DNA of 64,000 nt from a virus (taxonomy: Duplodnaviria; Caudoviricetes), in the IMG/VR virus record IMGVR_UViG_3300020411_000002, one strand, 5' to 3'. Of the stretch, positions 3,195 to 19,843 are shown in pieces. Made by a program: the position numbers and the translations under genes. Positions within the stretch are counted from its first letter, which is position 1. Each line of letters opens with the position of its first letter. Below the pieces are notes generated by a model. The model was not told the DNA's origin and did no database searches. It saw only the letters and a program-made list of their open reading frames with translations.

Positions 3195-3908
3195 GTGAGA
3201 AGACGTAACAAATCATTAGTAACAAAGTCTACAGGGCTTAAAAAAGTAACTAGCGATTTTGATATAGCCGAACGTATTAAAAGTTCAGTTAATAACTGTC
3301 CTCTTGTTACGAAAGATGCAGACTACTCGTTTGATTACAGATTTATAGGTCGTTGCCCTATGTCTAGCTGTCAGTATAACAATCACGAAACTAAAAATGG
3401 TTGTATGATGCTAGATGTTAAGTTACCTAGTAAAGACCTAACTGACGCCGAAATCTTCTACTATAAAATACGCAAGAATCCAGACTTTAGTGAAAGCGAA
3501 AAACCAAAGCCTAGAACAGTTAACTTGTTACGAAAGAAGTATGCTAGTTCTATAAAGTCAAACATTGTATTTTTCTATTTCGTTGAATACGTATTAGATA
3601 ATTACACACCTGAAGATTCTGAGTTTGTTTATGTTAGGGGAATAAAGCTTTTAGATATAGTTCTAAACTCTTTTCCTTTCAATCAGACCGAAGTGCCTTT
3701 CTCAGAGTGGCAATTGCCTTTCTTGTTTGACGATTCTGTTTACAAGAAGTTTTGCAGTAGTGATAGCAACATGCTAATCAACTCGGCTGATATTAATTTA
3801 AACAGTGTACTCGGATTAACACCCGTGAAGTTTCATAAAGTTCATAAGGTTATCAAGAGCCTTTTAGACGCTAACGAAGCTCATAATATTATACAAAATT
3901 TTACCTAA
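3195..3908 (+). CDS. Hypothetical protein with Cys cluster
   Basis: 237 aa; CPMSSC...GC; Arg-rich N-terminus. Confidence 0.65.
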   Translation: MRRRNKSLVTKSTGLKKVTSDFDIAERIKSSVNNCPLVTKDADYSFDYRFIGRCPMSSCQYNNHETKNGCMMLDVKLPSKDLTDAEIFYYKIRKNPDFSESEKPKPRTVNLLRKKYASSIKSNIVFFYFVEYVLDNYTPEDSEFVYVRGIKLLDIVLNSFPFNQTEVPFSEWQLPFLFDDSVYKKFCSSDSNMLINSADINLNSVLGLTPVKFHKVHKVIKSLLDANEAHNIIQNFT

Positions 3909-4650: not shown

Positions 4651-5703
4651 TTATTCAAACTCAGGTGCGAGTTTATACTTTAAGTCGTATTCAATTATAT
4701 CCATTAGTTCTTCAATTATTTCCTGATCGGCATTGTCGGGGTCTAACTTGATTAGCTTTCCATTCTTATCGAATTCAACTGGAAGTGGAAAGTTACTGAA
4801 CTTTATTTTGATTGGGCTTATTTCATTATGCAGATAAACAACTTCTTTTATTGTTCTTTTCATTGTCTTTCCACCTGTATCATTATCAGGCATTGTTATA
4901 ATATGCTTAACACCCATCTTAATTATAAAGCGTAACTTTTCTTTAGTGAACTGCTTAGCTCCAAGCACTGCTATCGCTGGAATGCCATTCATTAAAAGTC
5001 TTAATGCATCCCTAGCACCTTCAACGATTACAACATACTTTAGTTTGTACTTCTTGATAAGTTCTTTAGTATAGTTGTGAGGAAAGATACCATAGTCTTT
5101 TGCCCAGTCGCCTTCCATACCAAGATAGCTAGGTCTTCCTTTTACTTTGTTTATGTAAGCTTTCTGTCCACCGTAGAAACGCTTATCTATTTTATTAGGA
5201 AAGAAGCAGACTAACTCTTTTTGAGAACGATGCGGTTCAGATAGGTAATAGCCACCAACTTGTTTAATAAGCTTGCCGGGATATCCACGCCAGTCTATAT
5301 CTTCTGACCAAGGGAAGTAAGCAGGGTTCCCAATAGACTTCATTAGTACTTTTATATCGATAGTGCTTTCAACCATACCGAGCTTTCGTTTAAGTCTTTC
5401 AACTTTTTGGTTAGCTTCTTTAGTACTTTTTATTTTTCCATTAAGTGCAGATATCTTTTTAAGATTTAACTTTTCAGCCAGTTCGTTCCAGTGTCCTTTA
5501 GCACCACAACCAAAGCAATGAAAGAATCCTAATGGAATATCTAAACCGATGCCCATAAAGACACCTAAAGATGGATCTGTGTCTGAATGGAAAGGACATA
5601 CTATTTGTATTGCGTCTGCTGTTGCACCGCGAGGTCCCTCTACTTTATCTAGCTCTTCGAATATTATATCGTAGCTACTTCTTAGCTGGTCACTGTTACT
5701 CAT
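4651..5703 (-). CDS. DNA primase-like protein (CHC2 zinc finger + TOPRIM)
   Basis: CPFH...FHCFGCG zinc finger; VIVEGARDA and DND TOPRIM motifs. Confidence 0.8.
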   Translation of the reverse strand: MSNSDQLRSSYDIIFEELDKVEGPRGATADAIQIVCPFHSDTDPSLGVFMGIGLDIPLGFFHCFGCGAKGHWNELAEKLNLKKISALNGKIKSTKEANQKVERLKRKLGMVESTIDIKVLMKSIGNPAYFPWSEDIDWRGYPGKLIKQVGGYYLSEPHRSQKELVCFFPNKIDKRFYGGQKAYINKVKGRPSYLGMEGDWAKDYGIFPHNYTKELIKKYKLKYVVIVEGARDALRLLMNGIPAIAVLGAKQFTKEKLRFIIKMGVKHIITMPDNDTGGKTMKRTIKEVVYLHNEISPIKIKFSNFPLPVEFDKNGKLIKLDPDNADQEIIEELMDIIEYDLKYKLAPEFE

Positions 5704-8598: not shown

Positions 8599-9396
8599 AT
8601 GACTGCAAAAACTCGTACACGCACGGCTAAGAAACCCGTTCCTAGAAAAACTAGTAAAGCTCGTAGCGTAAGTCCAGACGATATTACAACTACAACTACG
8701 GCAGAAGAGCCTGCTCGTAAACGTAAATTCAAAGCAAAGAAAGTTCGTGTTAATTCACGCACTGCTAATCGCTCTGGTGATTGGAAGTTGAAAGACTTAA
8801 AAGGTGCTGAATATAATCCACGTATGATTACAGACAGACGCCTTGATAACATGGGTGATTCATACGAGCGCTTTGGTGACTTGTCTGGTATCGTATTTAA
8901 TAGACGTAGTGGTAAGCTGGTATCTGGACACCAACGCGTAGCTAACATCGAGAAGCGCGGCTATCCTACTGCTGTTAAAACTAATCCAACTAAAGACGAT
9001 CATGGTACAGTAGAAGAAGGCGTACTAGCTGTTAAGACAGACAAGGGCGTTATCCGTATTCCAATGCGTGTTGTTGATTGGGAAGACCAAAAAGCAGAAA
9101 TGGCAGCAAACGTTGCAGCCAACGCACACGGTGGTGAGTTCGATAAACAAAAGCTAAGCAAGCTAATGGCAGACTTAGAAGTTATCGAGGGTGGATTCGA
9201 AATTGGTTTAATTGGTTTAGATGAAGTTTCTATTCGCTCACTTCCAAAGTTGCCTGATCGTCCGTCTTCTAGTTCTGAGTCAAGCTCTGGTTCTAGCGGT
9301 TCAAGTAGTCGTCCTGACGGCTTTGATGCGTATGATGAAAGTTCTTTCGATGAACAGCTACAGCACTGCTGTCCTAAATGTGGATTTGAATTCTAA
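8599..9396 (+). CDS. ParB N-terminal domain protein with C-terminal zinc ribbon
   Basis: AEYNPRMI, LVSGHQRV, ANVAANAHGGEFD, terminal CPKCGFEF; the ParB type often found beside phage MTases. Confidence 0.8.
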   Translation: MTAKTRTRTAKKPVPRKTSKARSVSPDDITTTTTAEEPARKRKFKAKKVRVNSRTANRSGDWKLKDLKGAEYNPRMITDRRLDNMGDSYERFGDLSGIVFNRRSGKLVSGHQRVANIEKRGYPTAVKTNPTKDDHGTVEEGVLAVKTDKGVIRIPMRVVDWEDQKAEMAANVAANAHGGEFDKQKLSKLMADLEVIEGGFEIGLIGLDEVSIRSLPKLPDRPSSSSESSSGSSGSSSRPDGFDAYDESSFDEQLQHCCPKCGFEF

Positions 9397-10463
9397 TGAA
9401 GTTACCAGCCAAGTTACCTACTAAAATTCCTACTATTCGGGAAATAAATAAATCTAAGAAATATTTTTTAGGTATTTCTACTTTCTCTGGTGCTGGTGGT
9501 TCTTGTACTGGTCACAAAATGGCTGGTATCGACATTCAGTATGCAAACGAATTTATACCTGCTGCAAAAGAGGTTTATGAGATTAATCATAACTCTTTTT
9601 GTGACGGCTCTGACATTCGTACTGTTAAAGGAAAAGACATTCTTAAACACTTGGGAATTAAGAAAGGTCAACTTCCTTTCATGGACGGTTCGCCTCCATG
9701 TGCATCGTTCTCTACTTCTGGTAAACGTCAAGAAGATTGGGGACAAGAAAAGAAGTACAGTGATACTACTCAACGTACTGATGACCTGTTCTTTGAATAC
9801 GGAAGACTTGTTTCTGAAATTGAACCTTGGGTTTTCTTAGCTGAAAACGTATCTGGTTTAATCAAAGGTGCTGCTCGTGGATACTTCAAAGAGATTACTA
9901 CTTCATTAAAACAGTGCGGTCGTAAAGGTTATACTGTTCAGTGTTTTAGAATTAATGGAAGTTGGTTAGGTGTTCCTCAGAATCGTGAACGTATGATATT
10001 TATCGGCGTTCGTAATGACTTGGTAAAAGCTGCTGGTGTTAAACCTATCGCTCCTATGCCACTTGATAGACAAGTAGCTGTAAAAGAAGTACTTCCACAT
10101 ATTGCTTACATCAAAACTAAAGATGGTGATATGATAAAGTACGTTCCAGCCGATAGACCGTATCCAACTATTATGGCAAGCGATTACAACACTAGTCACA
10201 CTGCACTATTTAGTTCAGGTGGATTTGTAGAAGACAAGAAAGGCACTCAGCGTAAGATGACTGTAAAAGAACTCAAACGCATTTGTACTTTCCCTGACGA
10301 TTATGAAATCACTGGTAGCATTGCTCGTAAGTGGGAGAGACTAGGTCGAAGCGTACCTCCTCTAATGATGTATCACATTACACGTTCTGTAATTGATGGT
10401 ATATTAATTCCAATTGCAGAGCATAAGAAGTTAGATTATACCAAAGGACCTGTTCATGGATAA
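9396..10463 (+). CDS. C5-cytosine methyltransferase homolog, predicted cytosine carboxymethyltransferase
   Basis: Motif I FSGAGG, IV GSPPC, VI AENV, VIII PQNRER; motif X reads GRSVPP instead of GNSV. Confidence 0.9.
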   Translation: MKLPAKLPTKIPTIREINKSKKYFLGISTFSGAGGSCTGHKMAGIDIQYANEFIPAAKEVYEINHNSFCDGSDIRTVKGKDILKHLGIKKGQLPFMDGSPPCASFSTSGKRQEDWGQEKKYSDTTQRTDDLFFEYGRLVSEIEPWVFLAENVSGLIKGAARGYFKEITTSLKQCGRKGYTVQCFRINGSWLGVPQNRERMIFIGVRNDLVKAAGVKPIAPMPLDRQVAVKEVLPHIAYIKTKDGDMIKYVPADRPYPTIMASDYNTSHTALFSSGGFVEDKKGTQRKMTVKELKRICTFPDDYEITGSIARKWERLGRSVPPLMMYHITRSVIDGILIPIAEHKKLDYTKGPVHG

Positions 10464-11229
10464 AGACAACGTAGTTCCACCTGCTAAGTGGGAGTTCAAC
10501 GAAGAAGTAGCTAAATGTTTTGACGATATGTTACAACGGTCAATTCCAAGTTATGAGACAATGCGTTCTCTTACTTGGAACATCATGCATAACTACCATG
10601 TTAAGCAACAGAGCCATGTGCCTGACTTTAACCTGAATCACTTTAGAGGAAGATTCAAGCTTGGTAGCATTCTAGACTTAGGTGCTAGTCGTGGTGAAGC
10701 ACTAAGACCTTTTATTGAATCAGGTCACTATAGCTGTGATGCAATCGAAGTGTCTGAACCTATGCTAGATGTGCTTAAAGAACTGTACGGCGAGTCTGAC
10801 AATGTTAGAATTCACAACATAGATATGCGTAATCCTGAGTTTATTCAGCGCAATACTGATGGTATGCGAAAATCTTTTACCGGCATTCTTAGCATTCTAA
10901 CTATTCAGTTTACGCCTATCGAATATCGTATGGATATTCTACAGGAAATATATGACAGCTTATCAGAGGGCGGTATGTTTATCTTTGTAGAAAAAGTTCT
11001 TGGTAGCGGTGCGCAAATTAACCGTGTAATGGTCAACACTTACCACGACTCTAAGAATGGTAATGGATATAGTCAAGAAGATGTAGAACGTAAGCGCCTA
11101 TCTTTAGAGGGTGTTCTAGTTCCACAAACAGCTAGTGCTAACGAAGAAATGTTAAAGTTAGCAGGCTTCAAACATGTTGACTGTTTTTATAGACACTTAA
11201 ACTTTGCTGGATGGGTGTGTATTAAATGA
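10456..11229 (+). CDS. cmoA: Carboxy-S-adenosylmethionine synthase (CmoA-like)
   Basis: WEFNEEVA.CFDDMLQRSIPSY, LDLGASRG, LTIQF, FVEK, RKRLSLEGV, AGF...LNF follow E. coli CmoA motifs in order. Confidence 0.85.
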   Translation: MDKDNVVPPAKWEFNEEVAKCFDDMLQRSIPSYETMRSLTWNIMHNYHVKQQSHVPDFNLNHFRGRFKLGSILDLGASRGEALRPFIESGHYSCDAIEVSEPMLDVLKELYGESDNVRIHNIDMRNPEFIQRNTDGMRKSFTGILSILTIQFTPIEYRMDILQEIYDSLSEGGMFIFVEKVLGSGAQINRVMVNTYHDSKNGNGYSQEDVERKRLSLEGVLVPQTASANEEMLKLAGFKHVDCFYRHLNFAGWVCIK

Positions 11230-12203
11230 CTAGGAAACGCAAAGCAAGTAAAAGCAAAGACACCGTTATGGTAGACGGTGTTCCTCACGAAGACATTGAG
11301 GGTATGTTAGTTCCTGCGCACTGGAATGAAAACAACAAAAAGAATTGTCGTAAAGTTCGTTCTAGCGTAAAGAAAATGGCAAGCGCACCACCCGACTTAC
11401 GCCATGCTCTTATGGAATCACTATCTTTGTTTGAAGACGATTGCGGTGTTGCATGTTCTGGTGGACTAGATAGTCAAGCAATACTTTGGTCGCTCATTGA
11501 CTTAGGTAAAAAGCCCACTGTATTTAGTGTGTGCTTCGAACATCAGATTAGCTCTGACTTCTTATCTGCTAAACAAACTGCTGAATATTTTGGTCTAGAG
11601 TTTGTTCCAGTGTTCATACCTTATGACGCCGACAAGTACTACAAGTTCCTAAAGTATATAATTCATAAGCAAGGAATTACCAGTAAGCCTAGTATAGAAT
11701 GTTTGTATCCAATGATGCTTCTAATCAAAGAAGCAGAAAAGCGTTGCAGCTATTTAGCTTTTGGGCATGGTGGGGATATCTACTACAATCTAGCGCGTAA
11801 AGCAGAAATGTTTGGTAAAGATATTTTGTACGAATCTAGACTAGCTCAGTTTAGAGGTGGTGGAATTACTTACGGCCCTAAAGGTCAAGAAACTATTCTG
11901 ACTAGATATGCGTTGAAGAAAGGCATTTTTGCAATGTTCCCTTATCTGCTAGCTAACGTGTATGCTCAGTTCCAGACGATGACTACTTGGGAAGAAACCA
12001 ACAAACCTCAAAAGCGAATCGTCAGAGAAACATGGCCTCAACACTTAAAGCCATGTAAAGTTAAGAACCACTCAAACATGCAGTTAGGTGATGGGGACAT
12101 ATCTGGAAATCTCGGTAACTTGATTCTAGATAGTGAGTATAATGTAGGCAATTGGAAAAGCCAAGTTGGGGTCTACAATCACATTGCAAAACAAAAAGTG
12201 TAA
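11226..12203 (+). CDS. Asparagine synthetase-like ATP-dependent amide ligase lacking a glutaminase domain
   Basis: PP-loop ACSGGLDS; FGHGGDIYY (cf. SGEGADELFGGY); MFPYL; 325 aa with no Ntn Cys1. Confidence 0.75.
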   Translation: MTRKRKASKSKDTVMVDGVPHEDIEGMLVPAHWNENNKKNCRKVRSSVKKMASAPPDLRHALMESLSLFEDDCGVACSGGLDSQAILWSLIDLGKKPTVFSVCFEHQISSDFLSAKQTAEYFGLEFVPVFIPYDADKYYKFLKYIIHKQGITSKPSIECLYPMMLLIKEAEKRCSYLAFGHGGDIYYNLARKAEMFGKDILYESRLAQFRGGGITYGPKGQETILTRYALKKGIFAMFPYLLANVYAQFQTMTTWEETNKPQKRIVRETWPQHLKPCKVKNHSNMQLGDGDISGNLGNLILDSEYNVGNWKSQVGVYNHIAKQKV

Positions 12204-12206
12204 ATA
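12199..12206 (+). promoter_or_regulatory. TGTAAATA phage promoter motif
   Basis: AAAAAGTGTAAATAG overlapping the stop codon of the preceding gene. Confidence 0.55.
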
Positions 12207-12319
12207 GTAGTTCTGTAAATATTAATTTTATAGAGCAAGCGAGTTAGACAAAGTACCTGCTCGTTTTTAATATCATATCCCAAGAGAAGGGTTTTCTCTA
12301 ACCAACTAAGGAGATCATC

Positions 12320-12352
12320 ATGTTGATGAACAGTGGCGGCGCATTCCAATAA
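12320..12352 (+). CDS. Micro-ORF, peptide MLMNSGGAFQ (copy 1)
   Basis: AAGGAG RBS, 6-nt spacer, ATG, 10 codons, TAA. Confidence 0.6.
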   Translation: MLMNSGGAFQ

Positions 12353-12416
12353 GCGCGTAATCATTCGGGCCCTCGCTTAAAAGAGGTTTTTAACTTTCTT
12401 AACTAAGGAGATCATC

Positions 12417-12449
12417 ATGTTGATGAACAGTGGCGGCGCATTCCAATAA
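12417..12449 (+). CDS. Micro-ORF, peptide MLMNSGGAFQ (copy 2)
   Basis: Identical to copy 1, including the RBS. Confidence 0.6.
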   Translation: MLMNSGGAFQ

Positions 12450-12487
12450 GCGCGTAATCATTTGCACTATACGTAGTGTACTTTAAT

Positions 12488-12513
12488 AAAGGGGACTTCG
12501 TGTCCCCTTTTTT
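12488..12513 (+). terminator. Rho-independent terminator
   Basis: AAA-GGGGAC-TTCGT-GTCCCC-T6. Confidence 0.85.
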
Positions 12514-12571
12514 GCGTTCAATTGTCAAAACTGTAAAGAGACATATATCATTCTTAACTTAACTGGCAACT

Positions 12572-13111
12572 ATGAATCTGTTCAAAGTCTTACACGACCA
12601 AGTTAAAAAGAGTCTTCTTCAAGAGACTAAGCTTAGCGAGGACGAACGCCGTTTATTTCAATGGCAGTTCTTATCTAAAATAGGAAACGTTAACTATCTT
12701 GTTGGTAAAGGTGGTGCTAACACTATGTTCTATAGAGTTGGCGACGTAGGCGATCCTAGTTACTGCTATCCAGAAGAGATTCTTGCTATAATTAAGTCTT
12801 GGTCTAAATCCGAATACTCTGCTTATACTATCGATGTTGATGTGATGGGAACATGTGTAGCAGGACCGTTTGTTAAACTGGAAGAAGCAAAAGACTTTAT
12901 TCCAGATGATTCAAAACGCCCGCACTATATTATCGGTCATAAAACAGATGGTAGCTCAGAAAAAGTATTCATTCTGAAAAAATCGTTACAAGGTCTATCT
13001 TGGGTCAAGTATGATGCTGGACTTGAAACTGCTCCAACTAAGCGAGTACGTAAACGTAAACTCGTAAAGTCTACTTCTGCTAAGCCGAGAAGAACACGCA
13101 AGCATAGGTAA
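12572..13111 (+). CDS. Hypothetical protein with Arg/Lys-rich C-terminus
   Basis: 179 aa; preceded by CTGTAAAGA motif variant. Confidence 0.7.
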   Translation: MNLFKVLHDQVKKSLLQETKLSEDERRLFQWQFLSKIGNVNYLVGKGGANTMFYRVGDVGDPSYCYPEEILAIIKSWSKSEYSAYTIDVDVMGTCVAGPFVKLEEAKDFIPDDSKRPHYIIGHKTDGSSEKVFILKKSLQGLSWVKYDAGLETAPTKRVRKRKLVKSTSAKPRRTRKHR

Positions 13112-13116
13112 ATATT

Positions 13117-13698
13117 ATGGCTGCTCGTAAACCACGCAAATCAGGAATTGCCCGTTCTGGTACAACTGGAACTAAACGTTCTTCTACTCGATCTTCACGC
13201 TCTAAGAATTTCAGAGTATTACCCCTAGTAGAAAACGTAGTTGAACAACCGCCAGAGACGGACTTGTCTCGAAGAGGTTTGAGTCTTCGTAGACTTCTAA
13301 TGAATACACCACGTATTAGAAAAGAAGTAGGTCAGTACGAAGTTACAATTAAAAAGTTTAAGAAGCAGAAAACAAAGACAGGTCTAACTGCTCTTACTGC
13401 AATTGCAAACCACAAAGACCCGTTCATGCCTAACAAGACTGTTAAAGATCGTCCAGTTTATATTATTGGACTTGATTCACAAACTAAGCCTGTTACTAAA
13501 CAAAAGCGCGTGATGGTATCTTGTAATTGCGAAGACTTTGTTTTTCACGGTGCTGAATATGCGTGTGCATTACATGGTGCTGCTAGAATCATTTATGGTA
13601 ACGGCGAACCTGCTCACATGACTAATCCGCACAACGTTCCTTTTCTTTGTAAACATTTAGTTGGATTTTCTCACTACTGTTCTCAGAAAGGTTTATAG
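13117..13698 (+). CDS. SWIM zinc-finger protein
   Basis: VSCNCEDF...CKHL (CxC-xn-CxH). Confidence 0.75.
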   Translation: MAARKPRKSGIARSGTTGTKRSSTRSSRSKNFRVLPLVENVVEQPPETDLSRRGLSLRRLLMNTPRIRKEVGQYEVTIKKFKKQKTKTGLTALTAIANHKDPFMPNKTVKDRPVYIIGLDSQTKPVTKQKRVMVSCNCEDFVFHGAEYACALHGAARIIYGNGEPAHMTNPHNVPFLCKHLVGFSHYCSQKGL

Positions 13699-14611: not shown

Positions 14612-15670
14612 ATGGCTTTAGTTACTAATCCAGATGAAAACCTTTCTGGTGGACAAATCGAACAAATTCTGGATACCCTTCTATATGAGGTTTTACGCCC
14701 TCTTGTGTATCACAGTACTGTCTTCGATACTCAGATTGTGTATGCATTAAGTTTCATATCGAGAAACAAAAAGCGTAAAATCTCAACGTCAAACTCCCGT
14801 GAAGAAAGCATAGACTACCTATCTCGTGCCTTGATTACTGATGACTTGGATGAAAAGTTCGAGTATATTAAAAAGTCAAAGCTAGAGCGTTCTATGATAT
14901 ACGTATTTGCTACTAACATACTTAGGCACTATTACGATTCTTTCTTTACTTTGTATCAAAACTTTTTAGAGTCAGAGCCTGGAGATAGGCTTGTTCTTAA
15001 ACGAAGACTCAAAGTTATACAAGATAGTCTAGCGTGTCCTACGCGTAGTGACCTGTTTATCTTATTGAATGCAATGCATGATGCTACCAAGCAATATAAT
15101 ACATACGTAGAAAGTATTGTAGCTCAGTACATAAAGATATGCAGCAAGCAGGCTAGTTTCTTTGTTGATACAAATCCAAACAATAACTACGACAGAAAAG
15201 AAGTTAGGCAAAACTTTTTAAAGAACGTAGTAACTGCACTGAATAAATACAACAGTGAACACGGTGCTTTAACCTCGTACATAAAGTTTTGGTTTTTGAA
15301 TGCTCAAACTTGTAGCAACTCAGACCATGAGTACGGTATTGCATATCGTATACCACCACAGCATAAGAAAAAACTTGCTACTGGTGATACAGCTTCTGGA
15401 TTCGATATAAACTTTAGTGTCTCATTAGATGCAACTGTTACGGATGATGAAGGTGAAGAAGTTACTCTATACAACAAAGTAGAAAGTAACGAAACCGTAG
15501 ATTCCAGTCTTGAACATTCTAGATTCTCTGAACTACTTTGTACGCTTGCAAAGAATGTAGACCCTCATGGAATTGGAAGACTGACTCTCGGCATCGATGA
15601 ACACTTTTCAGATGCTGACCTAAATAAAATGAAAAAGCACATGATAAAGCAACATTTACTAAAAGTGTAA
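14612..15670 (+). CDS. Divergent sigma70-family transcription factor
   Basis: ALNKYNSEHGALTSYIKFWF resembles region 2.3-2.4; SVSLDATVTDDEGEEVTL resembles region 3.2. Confidence 0.55.
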   Translation: MALVTNPDENLSGGQIEQILDTLLYEVLRPLVYHSTVFDTQIVYALSFISRNKKRKISTSNSREESIDYLSRALITDDLDEKFEYIKKSKLERSMIYVFATNILRHYYDSFFTLYQNFLESEPGDRLVLKRRLKVIQDSLACPTRSDLFILLNAMHDATKQYNTYVESIVAQYIKICSKQASFFVDTNPNNNYDRKEVRQNFLKNVVTALNKYNSEHGALTSYIKFWFLNAQTCSNSDHEYGIAYRIPPQHKKKLATGDTASGFDINFSVSLDATVTDDEGEEVTLYNKVESNETVDSSLEHSRFSELLCTLAKNVDPHGIGRLTLGIDEHFSDADLNKMKKHMIKQHLLKV

Positions 15671-15704: not shown

Positions 15705-16967
15705 ATGGCTCGTGGATTTGATAATATTAATCCAAACGCAAACAGTAGAGGAGACAAGCTTAAACCTGAAGAAATTTGGGACTTATTTAAGTTTACTGAC
15801 CAAAGTGGTTATGTCTCTGTTCGCTTTTTGCCAACCGATATCTTACCAGTTAAAACACACTGGATTAAAATCTTAGCAGGCAAAGATAAGAAAGAAATCA
15901 AGATTCCAAAAATTTGTATCAGCTTTGATCCAGATAACGAAGCAGTTGCATTAGATGGTACTGACTGTCCTTATTGCAATCTATCACAAGGTCAAGACGG
16001 TGCGTGTCAAACTTCTACTGCTTATTATGCAAACGTTATAGTGCGTGACTTGCAAGAAGATATGCCGCGTAAGCTGCCGCCACACACTAAGAGTGAAAAA
16101 GAAACTGGATACAAAGATATCAAGTCTCGCTCTTGGACTCCTGTTCGAGTTGTACGTTTACCAGCAGGTCTTGCGGGTAAGATTCAAGAAATGCGTGAGC
16201 GTAACAAAGACAAGAAAGGCAACATGTATCCTGTATCTCATGAAGAGTACGGAATTGACATTGCTATCAAGTTTGATGACAGTAAATCAGGTACGGACAA
16301 GTATCAAATCGATAAAGAAGAGCGCTCTCCTTTAGACGACGAAGAGTTAGACTATCTAACTTATGATTTAAGCGTTGAGTGTATTGATATGCTTGGTCGT
16401 GAAAGTCAGGAACAGGCTGACACCGAATTTAAACGTCTTGATATTGTCGGTGAAGATGAAATCGAAGATGATGAAGACGATGAAGAAGATGATTTACCTC
16501 GTCGTAGTAAGAAAGGCAGTAAAGGTCGTCGCCGTGCATCAGTAGATGACGAAGATGAAGAAGATGAAGAAGATGATGAAGAAGATGATCTTCCACGTAG
16601 TCGTAGAGGTAAAAAGTCTTCTAGCCGTCGCTCTCGCCGCAGTTCAATTGATGAAGACGATGACGAAGATGAAGACGAAGACGAAGACGAAGAAGAGTCT
16701 CGTAGCTCTCGCCGTAGTAAACGTTCTTCTTCACGATCTAGCCGTCGCAGCCGTCGCAGTGAGCCAGAAGATGACGAAGATGAAGACGAAGATGATGAAC
16801 CTCGTTCTAGACGTAGTAAACGTTCTTCGACCAAGACTTCTAGCAGTAGAAGACGACGCGCACCTGTAGACGAAGAAGAAGATGAAGATGATGAACCTCG
16901 TTCTCGCCGTTCTCGTACATCTTCTAAGACTCGTTCAAGCTCTCGTTCTCGTTCTCGTAGACGATAA
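15705..16967 (+). CDS. T4 gp32-like single-stranded DNA-binding protein with long D/E and R/S tail
   Basis: VRFLP, HWIK, CPYC, YYANVIVR motifs; directly upstream of RecA. Confidence 0.7.
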   Translation: MARGFDNINPNANSRGDKLKPEEIWDLFKFTDQSGYVSVRFLPTDILPVKTHWIKILAGKDKKEIKIPKICISFDPDNEAVALDGTDCPYCNLSQGQDGACQTSTAYYANVIVRDLQEDMPRKLPPHTKSEKETGYKDIKSRSWTPVRVVRLPAGLAGKIQEMRERNKDKKGNMYPVSHEEYGIDIAIKFDDSKSGTDKYQIDKEERSPLDDEELDYLTYDLSVECIDMLGRESQEQADTEFKRLDIVGEDEIEDDEDDEEDDLPRRSKKGSKGRRRASVDDEDEEDEEDDEEDDLPRSRRGKKSSSRRSRRSSIDEDDDEDEDEDEDEEESRSSRRSKRSSSRSSRRSRRSEPEDDEDEDEDDEPRSRRSKRSSTKTSSSRRRRAPVDEEEDEDDEPRSRRSRTSSKTRSSSRSRSRRR

Positions 16968-19843
16968 TGCCAGCACGAACTACAAAGGCGGCTGAGACTA
17001 CAACTCGCCGTCGCCGTCGTTCTACTAGCGTAGCAGCGACCGAGACAACAGGTGTGAGCAAGCCTAAATCTGCTCGTAGTACCAAGCAGGAAGTAGTAGA
17101 AAACAATAAAGAGTTTTTTGATATCGGTCAAATGCTTGATGAACTTCAAGATGAAACTGATAAGAAATACGGACTTGTAAGCTCAGTACTTGAACGCTCT
17201 AGTGACCGAATGAGTACAGGTATTTTATCTTTGGACTTGTTGCTATATGGTGGTATTCAGCCAGGCGGTTGGTATACTATTTACGGTCCTGAGCAAAGTG
17301 CAAAGTCTACTCTTGCTATGACTATTCTTGCACAAGCGTTACATGCACGAATGACTAAAGGTTCTAAGTTTGCTTGTGGTATCTTTGACTACGAAGGTTC
17401 TGTAGATGAAGAATACACTGGTAACATTATCAAGTCATTGGGCATTAAAGGTAATGCAGCGCAAATCTTTGGTGTACGTGATGATGACGGTGGTTGGGAA
17501 ATTCCTCCTCTTGCTCGTTATTACTCACACGATGTTGGTGATGACTTCTTTAAAGCTCTAGCCAAAATTCGCCGTGGACTTCCAGACAAACAAACGATTA
17601 ACGGCGAGCCGTGTTATCTATTTGAACACACGAAAGCTAACAAGTCTAAGTTTGCTGGAATGTACGATACCAAGTACTTGTCTCGTAACAACAAGATTAA
17701 AGTACCTGCACCAGACGGCTTCATGCAAGGTTTATACTTGTGTGACTCTTATCCAGCTATGTTACCAGATGGTCTTGATGACGATGACCGTAACAGTGGT
17801 ATGGCAGAGCAAGCTCGTATGTTCAGTGAGGGTATCAAAAAAGTTAAAGGCGGTATGCGTAAGAAAGCAATGACTGTAATTGGTATTAACCAGTTGCGTC
17901 TACGTCCAGCGACTATGTTTGGTAATCCTGAATACGAACCGTGTGGTGAAGCGTTGAAGTTTTTCTGCTTCCATCCTACAACAAACCTCTTTACTAAAGA
18001 TGGTCTTGTAACAGGACAGGAGTTTTACGATTCTGGAAGCATGTCTAAGATTCTAGGATCTAAAGGACTTGAGAAACCTACTATCTTTGATAGTACGGGC
18101 TACAGTCAGATTAGTTGTCTAACTACTGAACTTGGTAACTTTATCAAAGCTAAACCTGGACATAGAACACTCTCTATTCAAAATAGAGGCTGTATGCCTG
18201 AATGGACAAAGTTGTCCAGCTTTACAGGCACTGTAGATCGTTATGTTCCTGTTAAAGTAGGTAGTGATATTTGGTCAGATACTGATGCACTATTAGATTT
18301 TGAATCTTTTTCAAAGTATGATAATGATGTTTGTATATCCAGTGTTCCTGAATCAATGTCACCTAAGTTAGCGTATGTTCTAGGCTCTTTATGCGGCGAT
18401 GGTCATGTTCCAGGTACTGGTGTTATTCATTTTGTTACTCAAGACGAAGATACAATGGACTTCTTCTTAGAATGTTTCGAGGAATCGTTTTCATTATCAG
18501 GTCTTGAGTACAGACAGGTAGATAATAAGTTTGAATTCAGCTTATCTAGTCGTAGGATTTCTAACTTCTTAGGTTACTTAGGTTCTACAGGTACTTCCCG
18601 AACTAAGTCTGTTCCTTGGGCAGTCAGAACCTCTACTAAGAAGTCATGTTTGATGTTCTTACGAGGCTTGTTTGACTCAGACGGTAATGTAGGCCCTAAA
18701 GGTATAGGTCTTTCAACAACATCTAAATTGCTTTCCGAGCAAGTACACTTAATGTTGTTGAACTTGGGATGTATTGCTAGACTGAAACGTAAAGACCATG
18801 ATTACCATGAGCATAAAGAACTGAATGCGGTTTATAACATAAGCTGTAGTGGTTCAAATGCTGTACGTTTGTATGAATCCGTAGGTTTAACTTCCGCTCG
18901 AAAAGCAGAAGCCTTTGAATCTAAAAGTACTGGCGATCATACTCATAATGAAATGTATTCTCTTGATCTAATACCTTTTGATGTTTTACCTACTGGTAGA
19001 CAGAAGTTTCAAAAGCTTGAGGGTCTTTTGGCGGAATGCAAAGGAAGAGGAGCTTATTATCGCATTAGCCGCTTTACAGAGGATTGGTTTGATGAAGCAT
19101 TTGGTTTTGTTGAGACTTTACGTACCGAGCATGAACGTGAAAAGTATCAAAACTTTCTTATTACACTAAGTAAGTTTATAGACTACACTAGCGAAAATTC
19201 TTTGTTCTGGACAAAAGTTGTTTCTGTAGACCATAACCTAGAGCGTTCGATGACCTATGATGCTAACATGCCTAAAACACATTCAATTGTGACTAACGGT
19301 ATTGTTTCTCATAACTCCGATGTTCGAATCAAGTCTACTCCACGCAGCACAGGTCCTAGCGGTTTCGTTGTTAATAAAGGAATCGTTGAAGAGCCTAGCG
19401 TTACTGGAAGAGGAAAAGACACTTACCGCTTCTTGCGTTTAAAGACTACTAAGAACAAACTTGGTGGTATGCCACAGCAAGAATGTTGGGCACGTATCTG
19501 GATATCTGATGGTACTGGTACTGCTCGGGGTCTTGACCCAGCGTTTGATACGTTTGAGTATCTTTCACTTCTTGGAATGGTTAGCGGAAACAAAAACAAT
19601 TACAAGTTTAGTGAAGATTGCCCACTTCACGGTGCTAAGAAAATCGATTGGATTACATTTAAGAAACTAGTTCTTTGTTCTCCAAAAGAAGTCAAAGCAA
19701 TTTGTGAAGAGCAAGGTATTAAACCTGTTAAGATTCGCGATTGGTGTCAAAAGCGTTGCGCTAACGGAAGTCATCCTAAGTTGTTCAAAGAAATCTTGGT
19801 GTCTGCTGCTACAGGTGGTAAGAAGTCTGACGATGATGAATAA
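16967..19843 (+). CDS. recA: RecA/UvsX recombinase interrupted by an intein
   Basis: STGILSLDLLLYGG, YGPEQSAKST Walker A, DSYPAM, INQLR, GEALKFF|SDVR, KTTKNK. Confidence 0.9.
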   Translation: MPARTTKAAETTTRRRRRSTSVAATETTGVSKPKSARSTKQEVVENNKEFFDIGQMLDELQDETDKKYGLVSSVLERSSDRMSTGILSLDLLLYGGIQPGGWYTIYGPEQSAKSTLAMTILAQALHARMTKGSKFACGIFDYEGSVDEEYTGNIIKSLGIKGNAAQIFGVRDDDGGWEIPPLARYYSHDVGDDFFKALAKIRRGLPDKQTINGEPCYLFEHTKANKSKFAGMYDTKYLSRNNKIKVPAPDGFMQGLYLCDSYPAMLPDGLDDDDRNSGMAEQARMFSEGIKKVKGGMRKKAMTVIGINQLRLRPATMFGNPEYEPCGEALKFFCFHPTTNLFTKDGLVTGQEFYDSGSMSKILGSKGLEKPTIFDSTGYSQISCLTTELGNFIKAKPGHRTLSIQNRGCMPEWTKLSSFTGTVDRYVPVKVGSDIWSDTDALLDFESFSKYDNDVCISSVPESMSPKLAYVLGSLCGDGHVPGTGVIHFVTQDEDTMDFFLECFEESFSLSGLEYRQVDNKFEFSLSSRRISNFLGYLGSTGTSRTKSVPWAVRTSTKKSCLMFLRGLFDSDGNVGPKGIGLSTTSKLLSEQVHLMLLNLGCIARLKRKDHDYHEHKELNAVYNISCSGSNAVRLYESVGLTSARKAEAFESKSTGDHTHNEMYSLDLIPFDVLPTGRQKFQKLEGLLAECKGRGAYYRISRFTEDWFDEAFGFVETLRTEHEREKYQNFLITLSKFIDYTSENSLFWTKVVSVDHNLERSMTYDANMPKTHSIVTNGIVSHNSDVRIKSTPRSTGPSGFVVNKGIVEEPSVTGRGKDTYRFLRLKTTKNKLGGMPQQECWARIWISDGTGTARGLDPAFDTFEYLSLLGMVSGNKNNYKFSEDCPLHGAKKIDWITFKKLVLCSPKEVKAICEEQGIKPVKIRDWCQKRCANGSHPKLFKEILVSAATGGKKSDDDE
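17966..19315 (+). mobile_element. 450-aa LAGLIDADG homing-endonuclease intein in RecA
   Basis: Starts CFHP after ALKFF; ends NGIVSHN before Ser; LAGLIDADG blocks LGSLCGDG and LRGLFDSDG. Confidence 0.92.

Follow-up and report, generated by a model that had tools for sequence, protein, structure and literature searches.

A tandem pair of probable ten-codon genes in a discrete transcription unit within a phage 5-carboxymethylcytosine hypermodification module

Directly downstream of the gene for an AsnS-like ligase, the genome of a giant marine phage (~243.7 kb) contains two exact 62-nt repeats, each presenting what looks like a complete gene of ten codons. Are these repeats working genes for a small peptide and, if so, is the peptide part of the DNA-modification module in which they lie? 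Both questions are addressed here for the window, i.e., the 64-kb stretch of that genome that was analysed and over which copies of the ORF pattern were searched. The features involved are listed below by position in the window.

8599-9396, + strand: ParB-like (ParBc) gene, first of the module (phrog_620, E = 8.7e-27)
9396-10463, + strand: CmoX-type C5 cytosine (carboxy)methyltransferase (PF00145, E = 3e-46)
10456-11229, + strand: CmoA-like carboxy-SAM synthase (phrog_4752, E = 7.7e-65; PF13649)
11226-12203, + strand: CmoY-like AsnS-type ATP-dependent amide ligase without a glutaminase domain (PF00733; PP-loop SGGLDS at residues 78-83)
12199-12206 (overlapping the CmoY stop codon) and 12214-12221, + strand: two TGTAAATA promoter-like motifs, from motif enrichment
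12237-12266, + strand: leader stem-loop followed by a U-run, the likely RNA 5' end (folds of the window and of relative L013)
12283-12299, + strand: small hairpin AGAGAA/TTCTCT upstream of copy 1 (MFE and centroid folds; identical in L013)
12304-12365, + strand: repeat copy 1, with SD at 12308-12313 and ORF at 12320-12352 (MLMNSGGAFQ and TAA)
12366-12400, + strand: unique 35-nt spacer with a weak CCTC/GAGG stem (bridging unitig in DNA run X6)
12401-12462, + strand: repeat copy 2, with SD at 12405-12410 and ORF at 12417-12449 (MLMNSGGAFQ and TAA)
12463-12481, + strand: 7-bp hairpin TGCACTA/TAGTGTA (folds; 100% conserved in L013)
12488-12513, + strand: intrinsic terminator of the unit, with 9 pairs (5 GC) and then a T-run
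12522-12559, + strand: putative separate promoter-like region that would serve the next gene, p23597 (sigma-70-like TTGTCA-18-TATCAT, and CTGTAAAGA)
12572-13111, + strand: p23597 (phrog_23597), conserved fifth gene of the module (homologs at module loci)

The unit (12199-12513) lies inside a ParB-CmoX-CmoA-CmoY-p23597 module, which is the published 5-carboxymethylcytosine hypermodification system. The product of 9396-10463 has the SPPC motif at residues 99-102 and GRSV at residues 317-320, with Arg 318, which correspond to the SPPC motif and the carboxymethyl-binding Arg given for these C5 methyltransferases in PMC12783734, where ParBc genes are also recorded in CmoX neighbourhoods. A CmoA-type carboxy-SAM synthase and an AsnS-like AMP-forming ligase share this neighbourhood, and CmoY homologs adjoin CmoA or CmoX in many phages. 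In phage Y3, the gene at the equivalent position, directly upstream of CmoY, is annotated as a carboxy-S-adenosyl-L-methionine synthase (a positional match). Homologs of p23597 were found in every module locus searched that extends past CmoY, and in PaBG the gene is placed between CmoA and CmoY; its AF2 model (pLDDT 80.7, confident) presented no significant fold match in the PDB or in the AFDB clusters. According to the same paper, CmoY joins an amine to 5-carboxymethylcytosine (5cxmC), this amine being glycine in phage S-B43, and other ligase clusters have amines yet to be identified.

The anatomy of the repeats agrees with what a first-pass annotation of the sequence had described. The repeat search of the window yielded two 62-nt copies that are 100% identical, with a period of 97, and each copy reads AAGGAG, a 6-nt spacer, ATG, ten codons and TAA. 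Allowing up to 3 mismatches, the 33-nt ORF pattern matches these two copies only in the 64-kb window, where 0 matches are expected. The mini-cistrons have an SD/anti-SD duplex energy of -9.1 kcal/mol, among the top four in comparison with 84 crude gene calls (mean of -4.5), and TAAGGAG has only 4 occurrences in the window. The same annotation had placed a promoter motif at 12199 and a strong terminator at the other end of the unit, and both were borne out: TGTAAATA occurs 14 times in the window versus 4.8 expected, a count reached in 0 of 100 shuffles, its copies lying mostly within aaaa[gc]TGTAAATAgta upstream of genes, and the terminator has the nine pairs and T-run listed above. Regarding the hairpins that had been proposed, those at 12283-12299 and 12463-12481 are present in the folds, whereas CCTC/GAGG in the spacer is a weak 4-bp stem only.

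The 3' hairpin and terminator fold with z = -3.6, the whole unit with z = -1.7, and the leader with z = -0.9. In L013, a 242.5-kb relative, a U.G pair of the leader stem-loop is changed to U-A; this stem-loop is included in an RNA contig from library X18 (12235-12333). The 109 nt of 12463-12571 are fully identical between the window and L013, against a divergence of ~10-14% at third codon positions in the flanking genes. Comparing 11200-13200 against 50,697 phage records with blastn produced no match, the exact ORF pattern was not found in IMG/VR, and a related-locus search of IMG/VR (query P0002) returned no relatives. Only chance-level matches were obtained with Rfam 15 over 11000-13500 at E up to 10, the best one overlapping the unit being SraG on the minus strand (12486-12614, i.e., the terminator and downstream sequence only), which scored 19 bits where the family's gathering score is 50 (E = 2.8). 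ARAGORN reported no tRNA or tmRNA. An antisense 61-aa ORF (12364-12179), called as a gene by a pipeline in contig L044, was considered spurious because every minus frame of L013 is interrupted by stops.

The duplication does not stem from an assembly error. In the independent DNA run X6, depth rises from 17.8 in the flanks to 45 on the 62-nt unitig, and a spacer unitig joins copy 1 to copy 2. L013 also presents two copies, as do L005, L038, L044, L045 and L047. Four contigs (L003, L004, L046 and L048) have one copy, which suggests copy number varies between one and two among natural populations, assembly collapse being possible for these contigs, and suggests two copies are not essential. In L013, both copies bear the same 4 changes relative to the window, which indicates that the copies evolve in concert. 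Strain X15 is nucleotide-identical to the window over 12448-12594; identity is claimed for this segment only, because 4 of the 26 differences in its left contig have no location, the 22 located ones all being in the CmoY gene.

Marine metatranscriptome assemblies contain the unit but hardly anything, or nothing at all, of the genes on either side. Contigs from RNA library X18 are confined to 12235-12461 and begin at 12235; neither the CmoY gene nor 12462-12943 has any. RNA runs X17-X20 contain 0.71-0.94 of the unit's words versus only 0.22-0.30 of the wider 551-nt stretch, and in ten metatranscriptome runs from four studies the share of the unit's words is 0.41 or more. All of this RNA evidence consists of assembled contigs, which give no strand, true ends or reliable level and leave 12463-12513 uncovered; it may point to high abundance of the unit's transcript, which would be expected to begin at about 12228-12235 and to end near 12513. 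The enriched promoter motif, the strong terminator and the confinement of the X18 contigs support the earlier proposal of a self-contained transcription unit, and it is very probable that the unit is a real and discrete one.

Whether homologous cassettes track with the ligase had been set as a check in the first-pass annotation, and tiny ORFs were indeed found in relatives, within one CmoY subclade. This subclade appears to keep a promoter, a strong SD, a tiny ORF and a terminator 3' of CmoY. The TGTAAATA motif, or a nearly identical one, is found at or just past the CmoY stop in L013, Y3, Yoloswag, L057, L031, L011 and L006. All CmoYs with a small ORF belong to a single 12-row clade (support 99/97), and an equally tight clustering was obtained in 0 of 500 label shuffles. 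In the L031 family, whose CmoY is 36% identical, two tandem 88-nt repeats each carry an SD, MSIGGEGY and a hairpin, with a terminator after them; peptide variants in this family are MSNGDGY, MSIGGEGF and MTGGEGF, and in L031 the unit sits between CmoY and CmoA. L006 (CmoY 51-53% identical) has MQDRTGF at the same place. The mini-cistrons comprise 10 codons in the window and 7-8 in L031, L040, L041 and L006. In Y3, Yoloswag, L011/L012 and L057, the slot is occupied by SD-led multi-unit Pro-acid ORFs, with promoter and terminator, the L057 one comprising two identical in-frame 36-nt units. Hence, depending on the lineage, the slot contains Gly-aromatic mini-cistrons, MQDRTGF, or DPA or EPE repeats. 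No tiny ORF follows CmoY in its close relatives Sen-NF, L014/L065 and L030, nor in any of the distant CmoYs examined. In the 8.8 kb of Sen-NF that were covered, the oxygenase gene comes immediately after CmoY. An 18-mer starting at the SD, TAAGGAGAACATCATGTT, is common to L013 and L011; it was rejected as proof of homology and read as a generic strong RBS, because the same 18-mer precedes 8 unrelated genes in IMG/VR. No published description of the mini-cistron unit was found in the literature searched, and the mini-cistron version of the slot is new.

Is the peptide what selection keeps? Relative to the window, L013 presents AAC>AAT, which is synonymous, and AGT>TCT, which replaces Ser by Ser through two base changes; in this switch of Ser codon family (AGT/ACT/TCT), the intermediate ACT (Thr) is present in other strains. 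Within the two mini-cistron types (type A of the window and type B of L031), both indels are of 3 nt and in frame, and six of seven replacements are synonymous or conservative. Substitutions in the L031 family are S/T, Y/F and E/D, plus one I>N. The in-frame indels, the synonymous or conservative replacements and the Ser codon switch argue for selection acting on the peptide, and a peptide core resembling [S/T]-G-G-x-[F/Y] may be proposed. Peptides of differing types share only a loose motif, and the Pro-acid types look unrelated in sequence. The small ORFs of L011 and L012 are 100% nucleotide-identical while their CmoYs differ at 78 of 867 nt, which fits nucleotide-level constraint or recombination equally as well as peptide selection. 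As judged from these comparisons, the mini-cistrons are probably translated and their peptide is probably under selection.

Other explanations must be weighed against this. A recent neutral tandem duplication of intergenic sequence with a chance RBS-like string and no function would agree with the single-copy contigs, yet it is extremely improbable: the same two-copy design is present where CmoY is only 36% identical, changes are concerted across copies, RNA assemblies hold the unit, and the 109 nt at the 3' side are fully conserved against the third-position divergence of the flanking genes. The two identical modules could also constitute a non-coding small RNA, e.g., one that acts as a sponge and binds ribosomes or an RNA-binding protein, or one that regulates by antisense pairing; SD, ATG and stop would then be incidental. 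A discrete short unit found in RNA assemblies without its flanks is what such an RNA would produce, as are repeated modules with hairpins between them, and types A and B have the strings TTAACTAAG, GGCGGCG and AAGCGC in common. Nevertheless, the RNA-only function that had been listed in the first pass is disfavoured, because no Rfam family matches, the fold z-scores of unit and leader are weak, and shared strings are lost while frame and residue classes persist (GGCGGCG and AAGCGC are missing from alleles b2 and b4 and from type C, yet ORF, SD and residue classes are retained). In addition, the start-codon hairpin is one pair short in L013 and absent in L011, whereas SD, ATG, open frame and stop are present in every tiny-ORF lineage. 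A small RNA is thus very unlikely.

It is also distinctly unlikely that the unit is a cis-acting translated element, in which ribosome loading matters and peptide identity does not, and which would act through RNA stabilisation, through enforced termination as an insulator between CmoXAY and the next operon, or through tuned read-through into p23597. The strong SD, the very short ORFs and the terminator directly 3' fit such an element, ribosomes have been shown to induce termination and to stabilise the message at mccA (PMC4231749), and nucleotide conservation is above synonymous-site level both in L011 versus L012 and in the 109 nt shared with L013. However, conservative replacements (S/T, Y/F, E/D), the Ser codon switch, in-frame indels and a recurring G-rich aromatic C-terminal core speak for the peptide; no antiterminator alternative to the terminator stem, i.e., no segment complementary to its 5' arm, was seen by eye in sequence or folds; the next gene has promoter-like sites of its own; and the RNA contigs do not extend downstream. 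With regard to a classical leader-peptide attenuator, no antiterminator pairing was seen by eye and the RNA contigs stop before the terminator region, although contigs cannot show read-through. A further alternative, which we consider unlikely, accepts a real and highly expressed micropeptide and separates it from DNA modification: it could, for instance, target a host defence or translation factor, as the inhibitor peptide proposed in the first pass would, or serve host takeover, and the slot after CmoY would be a conserved operon boundary that gathers small, fast-evolving "moron"-like genes. The radical change of slot content among lineages is a pattern typical of arms-race genes, and the unit is transcriptionally independent, since it has its own promoter and terminator. 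Against this, the tiny ORF tracks one CmoY subclade, the unit is placed between CmoY and CmoA in L031 and between CmoY and p23597 in the window, and recurrent multi-copy dosage designs suit a consumed substrate better than a catalytic inhibitor.

The preferred reading, tentative and falling just short of probable, is that the two repeats are dosage-amplified working micropeptide genes of the module, in an mccA-like arrangement; that the unit is functionally tied to the module in some way is somewhat favoured. The unit runs from the TGTAAATA promoter through a ~90-nt leader, two SD-led mini-cistrons and a hairpin to the intrinsic terminator. As the comparison of relatives suggests, each of the two cistrons would be translated to give MLMNSGGAFQ, and keeping two identical copies in tandem would raise the dose. 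The short, stable and strongly translated message would then provide, as with mccA, a large molar excess of small peptide for the neighbouring enzymes. The high-dose peptide output suggested in the first pass is plausible, and the synonymous or conservative changes, in-frame indels and recurring multi-copy designs add support to it. The peptide may feed or steer the DNA-modification pathway, because tiny peptide genes in more than one copy also occupy this position in distant relatives. Speculatively, the peptide or a piece of it would be the amine partner that the glutaminase-less CmoY joins to 5cxmC or, alternatively, a cofactor or regulator of the 5cxmC pathway.

Among the roles proposed in the first pass, the most attractive, if speculative, is that the adjacent ligase uses the peptide as substrate or amine donor, because this ligase is homologous to CmoY, its amine is yet to be identified, and the tiny ORF tracks one CmoY subclade. 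In its specific form, i.e., the mini-cistron peptide, whole or trimmed from the conserved Ser/Thr, being the amine ligated to 5cxmC by this subclade, the proposal is unlikely to be correct. Tandem genes would provide the stoichiometric supply in types A and B, and multi-unit ORFs would do so in types D and E. Full decoration of GC sites by a 6-10-mer would add roughly 8-15% to the DNA mass, as computed; T4 DNA glucosylation adds, as a rough estimate, a similar share. Co-folding CmoY with the 10-mer gave a score of 0.01, which speaks neither for nor against this role, a chain of <30 aa lying outside the calibration of the tool. An amine donor would need a free N-terminus; type A retains Met-Leu.

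If the proposal is true, the bases of the phage DNA would be hypermodified with peptides synthesised on ribosomes. When the CmoA-CmoX-CmoY pathway was described in 2025 (PMC12783734), the amines of most phage ligases were left open, and the peptide is a concrete candidate. Should the peptide have no role as a substrate, these would still be genes of 7-10 codons under visible purifying selection, widespread in ocean metagenomes and missed by gene callers, and the unit would illustrate how concerted tandem duplication raises peptide dose.

Among known systems, multi-core RiPPs and lasso peptides resemble the locus in that repeated peptide units adjoin an AsnS-fold ATP-dependent amide-forming enzyme. 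However, the window has no leader-plus-core precursor, the 10-aa MLMNSGGAFQ has no Asp/Glu acceptor and so no ring-forming residue at core positions 7-9, and neither a B-type protease (leader peptidase) nor another peptidase domain was detected among the scanned neighbours. CmoY has ~290-325 aa, whereas lasso cyclases have ~600 aa. The "RiPP-like" label of the first-pass annotation could not be upheld for lasso peptides, given the missing Asp/Glu, or for microcin C, given the missing C-terminal Asn and MccB. The lambda bar minigene likewise presents SD-led ORFs of few codons on a phage transcript, but bar and other toxic minigenes act via translation, by peptidyl-tRNA drop-off and tRNA sequestration (PMC2490762), comprise 2-8 codons and are indifferent to peptide sequence, whereas the present ORFs have 7-10 codons with conserved residue classes.

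The pathway of Synechococcus phage S-B43 (PMC12783734) is matched by the ParBc, CmoX (SPPC and Arg), CmoA and AsnS-like ligase genes of the window, all in one operon. There, SpCmoY uses free glycine and the product is 5-glycylcarboxymethylcytosine, whereas the window's CmoY belongs to a distant subclade that has the tiny-ORF unit and, as an additional conserved gene, p23597; no mention of small ORFs was found in the parts of that description that were searched. Erwinia phages Y3 and Yoloswag and their relatives, whose CmoYs are sister to those of the L031 mini-cistron type, share the slot, the promoter motif at the CmoY stop, the strong SD, the terminator and internal tandem units. Their peptides, however, have 34-49 aa, are acidic, Pro-rich and fused in one ORF, and are followed by a PF13640 prolyl-hydroxylase-type oxygenase, whereas the window has two separate 10-codon cistrons, a Gly-aromatic peptide and no oxygenase homolog within its 64 kb. 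The Pro-acid ORF of Y3 is annotated as a hypothetical protein only (Y3_019).

A close architectural parallel is mccA, the 7-codon precursor gene of microcin C, which is among the shortest known genes and in which peptide length is conserved and sequence is not (PMC4231749, PMC6495379). Its short, very abundant, ribosome-stabilised message ends at a terminator and supplies substrate in excess over an ATP-dependent adenylating enzyme (PMC4231749). In mccA, the partner MccB (ThiF/E1-like) adenylates the C-terminal Asn of the peptide, whereas CmoY is AsnS-like with a DNA-borne carboxylate as known substrate, the mini-cistron peptides have Q, F or Y as their last residue, a scan of the neighbours revealed no ThiF-like domain, and the gene is tandemly duplicated in a phage setting with no export or immunity genes. 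The present unit shares with mccA the SD-led very short ORF, the intrinsic terminator directly 3' and the short transcript, its abundance being read from contigs only, and would be a rare natural addition to the very few functional genes known to be this short, of which mccA is the classic example.

The unit at 12199-12513 is built around two 62-nt repeats, at 12304-12365 and 12401-12462, which the repeat search shows to be 100% identical and 97 nt apart from start to start. Each copy presents AAGGAG, a 6-nt spacer, an ATG, ten codons (MLMNSGGAFQ) and a TAA, as described in the first-pass annotation. The 33-nt ORF string matches at these two repeats only, with up to three mismatches allowed, versus 0 expected in 64 kb. 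SD use is general in the window, with a mean anti-SD duplex energy of -4.5 kcal/mol for genes versus -1.9 at random positions; the mini-cistron SD reaches -9.1 kcal/mol, in the top four against 84 crude gene calls, and two of the four TAAGGAG occurrences in the window are in the unit. The proposed promoter motif at 12199, TGTAAATA, and the strong terminator at 12488-12513 were also borne out: the former occurs 14 times in the window versus 4.8 expected (0 of 100 shuffles reach 14), usually as aaaa[gc]TGTAAATAgta upstream of genes, and the 3' hairpin plus terminator folds with z = -3.6. The copy at 12199 shares bases with the upstream gene's stop codon, and a second copy lies at 12214. The extended motif is strongly enriched and promoter-like (e.g., sites 3155, 8549, 12199, 19852, 47602 and 54489), and is common to the window phage and the Erwinia phages Y3 and Yoloswag. 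An antisense ORF of 61 aa (12364-12179, minus strand), called as a gene by a public pipeline in contig L044, overlaps the promoter, leader and copy 1; it is probably spurious, being interrupted in all minus frames of L013, a 242.5-kb contig from a related strain.

The duplication is real. In X6, an independent marine DNA run, the 62-nt unitig has a depth of 45 versus 17.8 for its flanks, and one unitig runs from copy 1 through the unique spacer into copy 2. Two copies are also found in near-identical contigs of other assemblies (L038, L044, L045, L047 and L005) and in L013, whose CmoY gene differs from that of the window at 56 nt, 46 of them in third codon positions (94.3% nucleotide identity). 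Four contigs (L003, L004, L046 and L048) hold a single copy, which suggests that either one or two copies occur in nature, assembly collapse being the alternative cause.

The stretch is present in many marine metagenomes and metatranscriptomes. RNA evidence was drawn from assembled contigs only, in which position is informative, rather than strand, true ends or levels. In RNA run X18, contigs cover 12235-12333 and 12304-12430 and include a minor variant with Thr, while none lie on the CmoY gene (11700-12234) or on 12462-12943, the next one running from 12944. DNA contamination would have covered the flanks too. A search with the unit alone recovered at least 0.41 of its words in ten metatranscriptome runs from four studies, and in X17-X20 0.71-0.94 of the unit is present versus 0.22-0.30 of a wider 551-nt stretch. 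The left contig edge at 12235 fits a start right after the second TGTAAATA. This discrete appearance, with flanks mostly absent, agrees with the self-contained transcription unit originally claimed.

The genes around the unit, and homologs of the gene following it in related loci, are as follows.

8599-9396, ParB-like gene, upstream of the unit
9396-10463, C5-methyltransferase homolog, with SPPC motif and Arg in GRSV
10456-11229, CmoA-like enzyme, upstream of the unit
11226-12203, AsnS-like PP-loop ligase, glutaminase-less, upstream of the unit
12572-13111, p23597 (phrog_23597), the gene after the unit
14612-15670, phage sigma-like gene (phrog_17569)
L014:3894-4334, p23597 homolog
L030:3382-3834, p23597 homolog
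L031:4523-4972, p23597 homolog
L033:4073-4516, p23597 homolog
L017:2512-2964, p23597 homolog

The upstream genes are the CmoX-CmoA-CmoY system of Yang et al. 2025 (PMC12783734); our analysis agrees with the first-pass reading of this operon, including the Arg in GRSV and the lack of a glutaminase domain in the ligase. According to the paper, CmoX makes 5-carboxymethylcytosine, onto which CmoY then ligates an amine, which is glycine in phage S-B43; its authors consider that other ligase clusters probably use unidentified amines (PMC12783734). Homologs of p23597 (~147-179 aa) are present in all searched module loci reaching past CmoY, and in PaBG the homolog stands between CmoA and CmoY. This recurrence places the mini-cistron unit within the module rather than on its margin. 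The p23597 protein looks like an unrecognised fifth component; its AF2 model is confident (pLDDT 80.7), yet presents no fold match in PDB or AFDB, and the window's protein has a long basic tail at its C-terminus. Elsewhere, the window's UvsX/RecA-like recombinase (16967-19843) contains an intein bearing a LAGLIDADG endonuclease, and the CmoX homolog of contig L057 (112-1425) itself has intein and LAGLIDADG matches.

Mini-cistrons were divided into type A (the window phage and its strains), type B (L031 and relatives) and type C (L006). In type A, the L013 ORF differs from the window's by AAC>AAT, which is synonymous, and by AGT>TCT, a Ser-to-Ser change via two base changes; other strains hold ACT (Thr), a natural intermediate. 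The same four changes are in both L013 copies, hence the copies evolve in concert. In type B, the L031 CmoY is just 36% identical to the window's, and the order is CmoY, TGTAAACA at the stop codon, two tandem repeats (88 nt, 99% identical, period 109), terminator and CmoA; in each repeat a strong SD leads MSIGGEGY, and a hairpin is also present. L040 encodes MSNGDGY twice, and L041 and L042 encode MSIGGEGF and MTGGEGF; both indels are of 3 nt, replacements are S/T, Y/F, E/D and one I>N, and hairpin stems are conserved while loops vary. Type C has a CmoY 51-53% identical and a single SD-led MQDRTGF. Types A-C conserve a residue pattern in which S/T precedes G(G) and an aromatic residue stands close to the C-terminus. 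In L006, the mini-ORF is followed by ~230 nt of strongly folded RNA (4892-5125), with a perfect palindromic hairpin and a long terminator at its end; the window has no counterpart of this RNA.

Types D and E (Y3, Yoloswag, L011/L012 and L057) present the promoter motif, a strong SD, an ORF and a terminator ahead of a PF13640 oxygenase. Their ORFs have 34-49 aa in repeated units, in each of which DPA or EPE repeats come after an aromatic residue, and the freely varying codon choice of the DPA repeats supports coding. In L057 (a 241.7-kb IMG/VR contig; ORF at 3462-3566), aaaacTGTAAATA is followed by MKNYEPE, MTSKFDEPEEPE twice (identical 36-nt in-frame units) and VVA, then by the terminator and oxygenase. 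In sequence, these ORFs may be non-homologous to those of types A-C. The PF13640 (prolyl-hydroxylase-type) oxygenase accompanies the Pro-acid repeat ORFs (L007, L010, L011, L012 and L057) and is absent where Gly-aromatic mini-cistrons occupy the slot (window, L031 and L006); in Sen-NF it directly follows CmoY, and the 8.8 kb examined show no small ORF. Other relatives without the tiny ORF have a different enzyme adjoining CmoY, namely a weakly glycosyltransferase-like protein of 418 aa (L030:1258-2514) or a DUF1611 protein (L033-L035; L033:1449-2504), which may be other routes to elaborate the modification or supply the amine.

On the CmoY tree, all nine rows bearing a tiny ORF fall inside one 12-row clade (support 99/97), and 0 of 500 label shuffles are equally clustered; types A and C are sisters, and B groups with D. 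The ORF tracks this ligase subclade. Some close relatives (Sen-NF, L014/L065 and L030) are without it. Distant CmoY loci (PaBG, SNUABM_5, S-B05, a Staphylococcus phage, L032, L033 and L037) have neither gap nor tiny ORF after the ligase.

Taken together, these features point to a micropeptide that is translated and for which dosage is important, since a dedicated promoter, a top-rank SD, an ORF of 7-10 codons or multiple units and an immediate terminator recur, multi-copy designs arise by different routes, and residue classes are conserved. At the level of sequence comparison, the allele series argues for selection on the peptide. Nucleotide-level conservation is also high: the small ORFs of L011 and L012 show no difference, against 78 of 867 nt in their CmoY genes, and 12463-12571 is identical between the window and L013 (109/109 nt). 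Given this conservation, an RNA or cis-acting component may also be in play. The idea that the peptide is the amine ligated by CmoY is attractive, as CmoY has no glutaminase domain and the ORF follows the ligase subclade, but it is rather unlikely. Peptide-decorated DNA is compatible with a mass estimate that assumes for the window phage the same GC specificity as SpCmoX: with 10,871 GC sites per 243.7 kb, modification of both strands would add 22.6 MDa (10-mer) or 12.6 MDa (6-mer) to 150.6 MDa of DNA.

New in this analysis are the mini-cistron form and the finding that it recurs in a second lineage, together with the RNA evidence and an allele series indicating selection on the peptide. Among described systems, the nearest in design is mccA, whose message is short, abundant and ribosome-stabilised and ends at an intrinsic terminator, so that the peptide substrate outnumbers the enzyme that adenylates it (PMC4231749); its peptides are conserved in length, not in sequence (PMC6495379). 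The peptide has no C-terminal Asn and the unit no MccB, so it does not belong to the microcin C family; nor does it qualify as a lasso or classical RiPP, and the RiPP-like label in one of the initial hypotheses does not hold in the formal sense. We therefore claim that the unit works like mccA, not that it is a member of that family.
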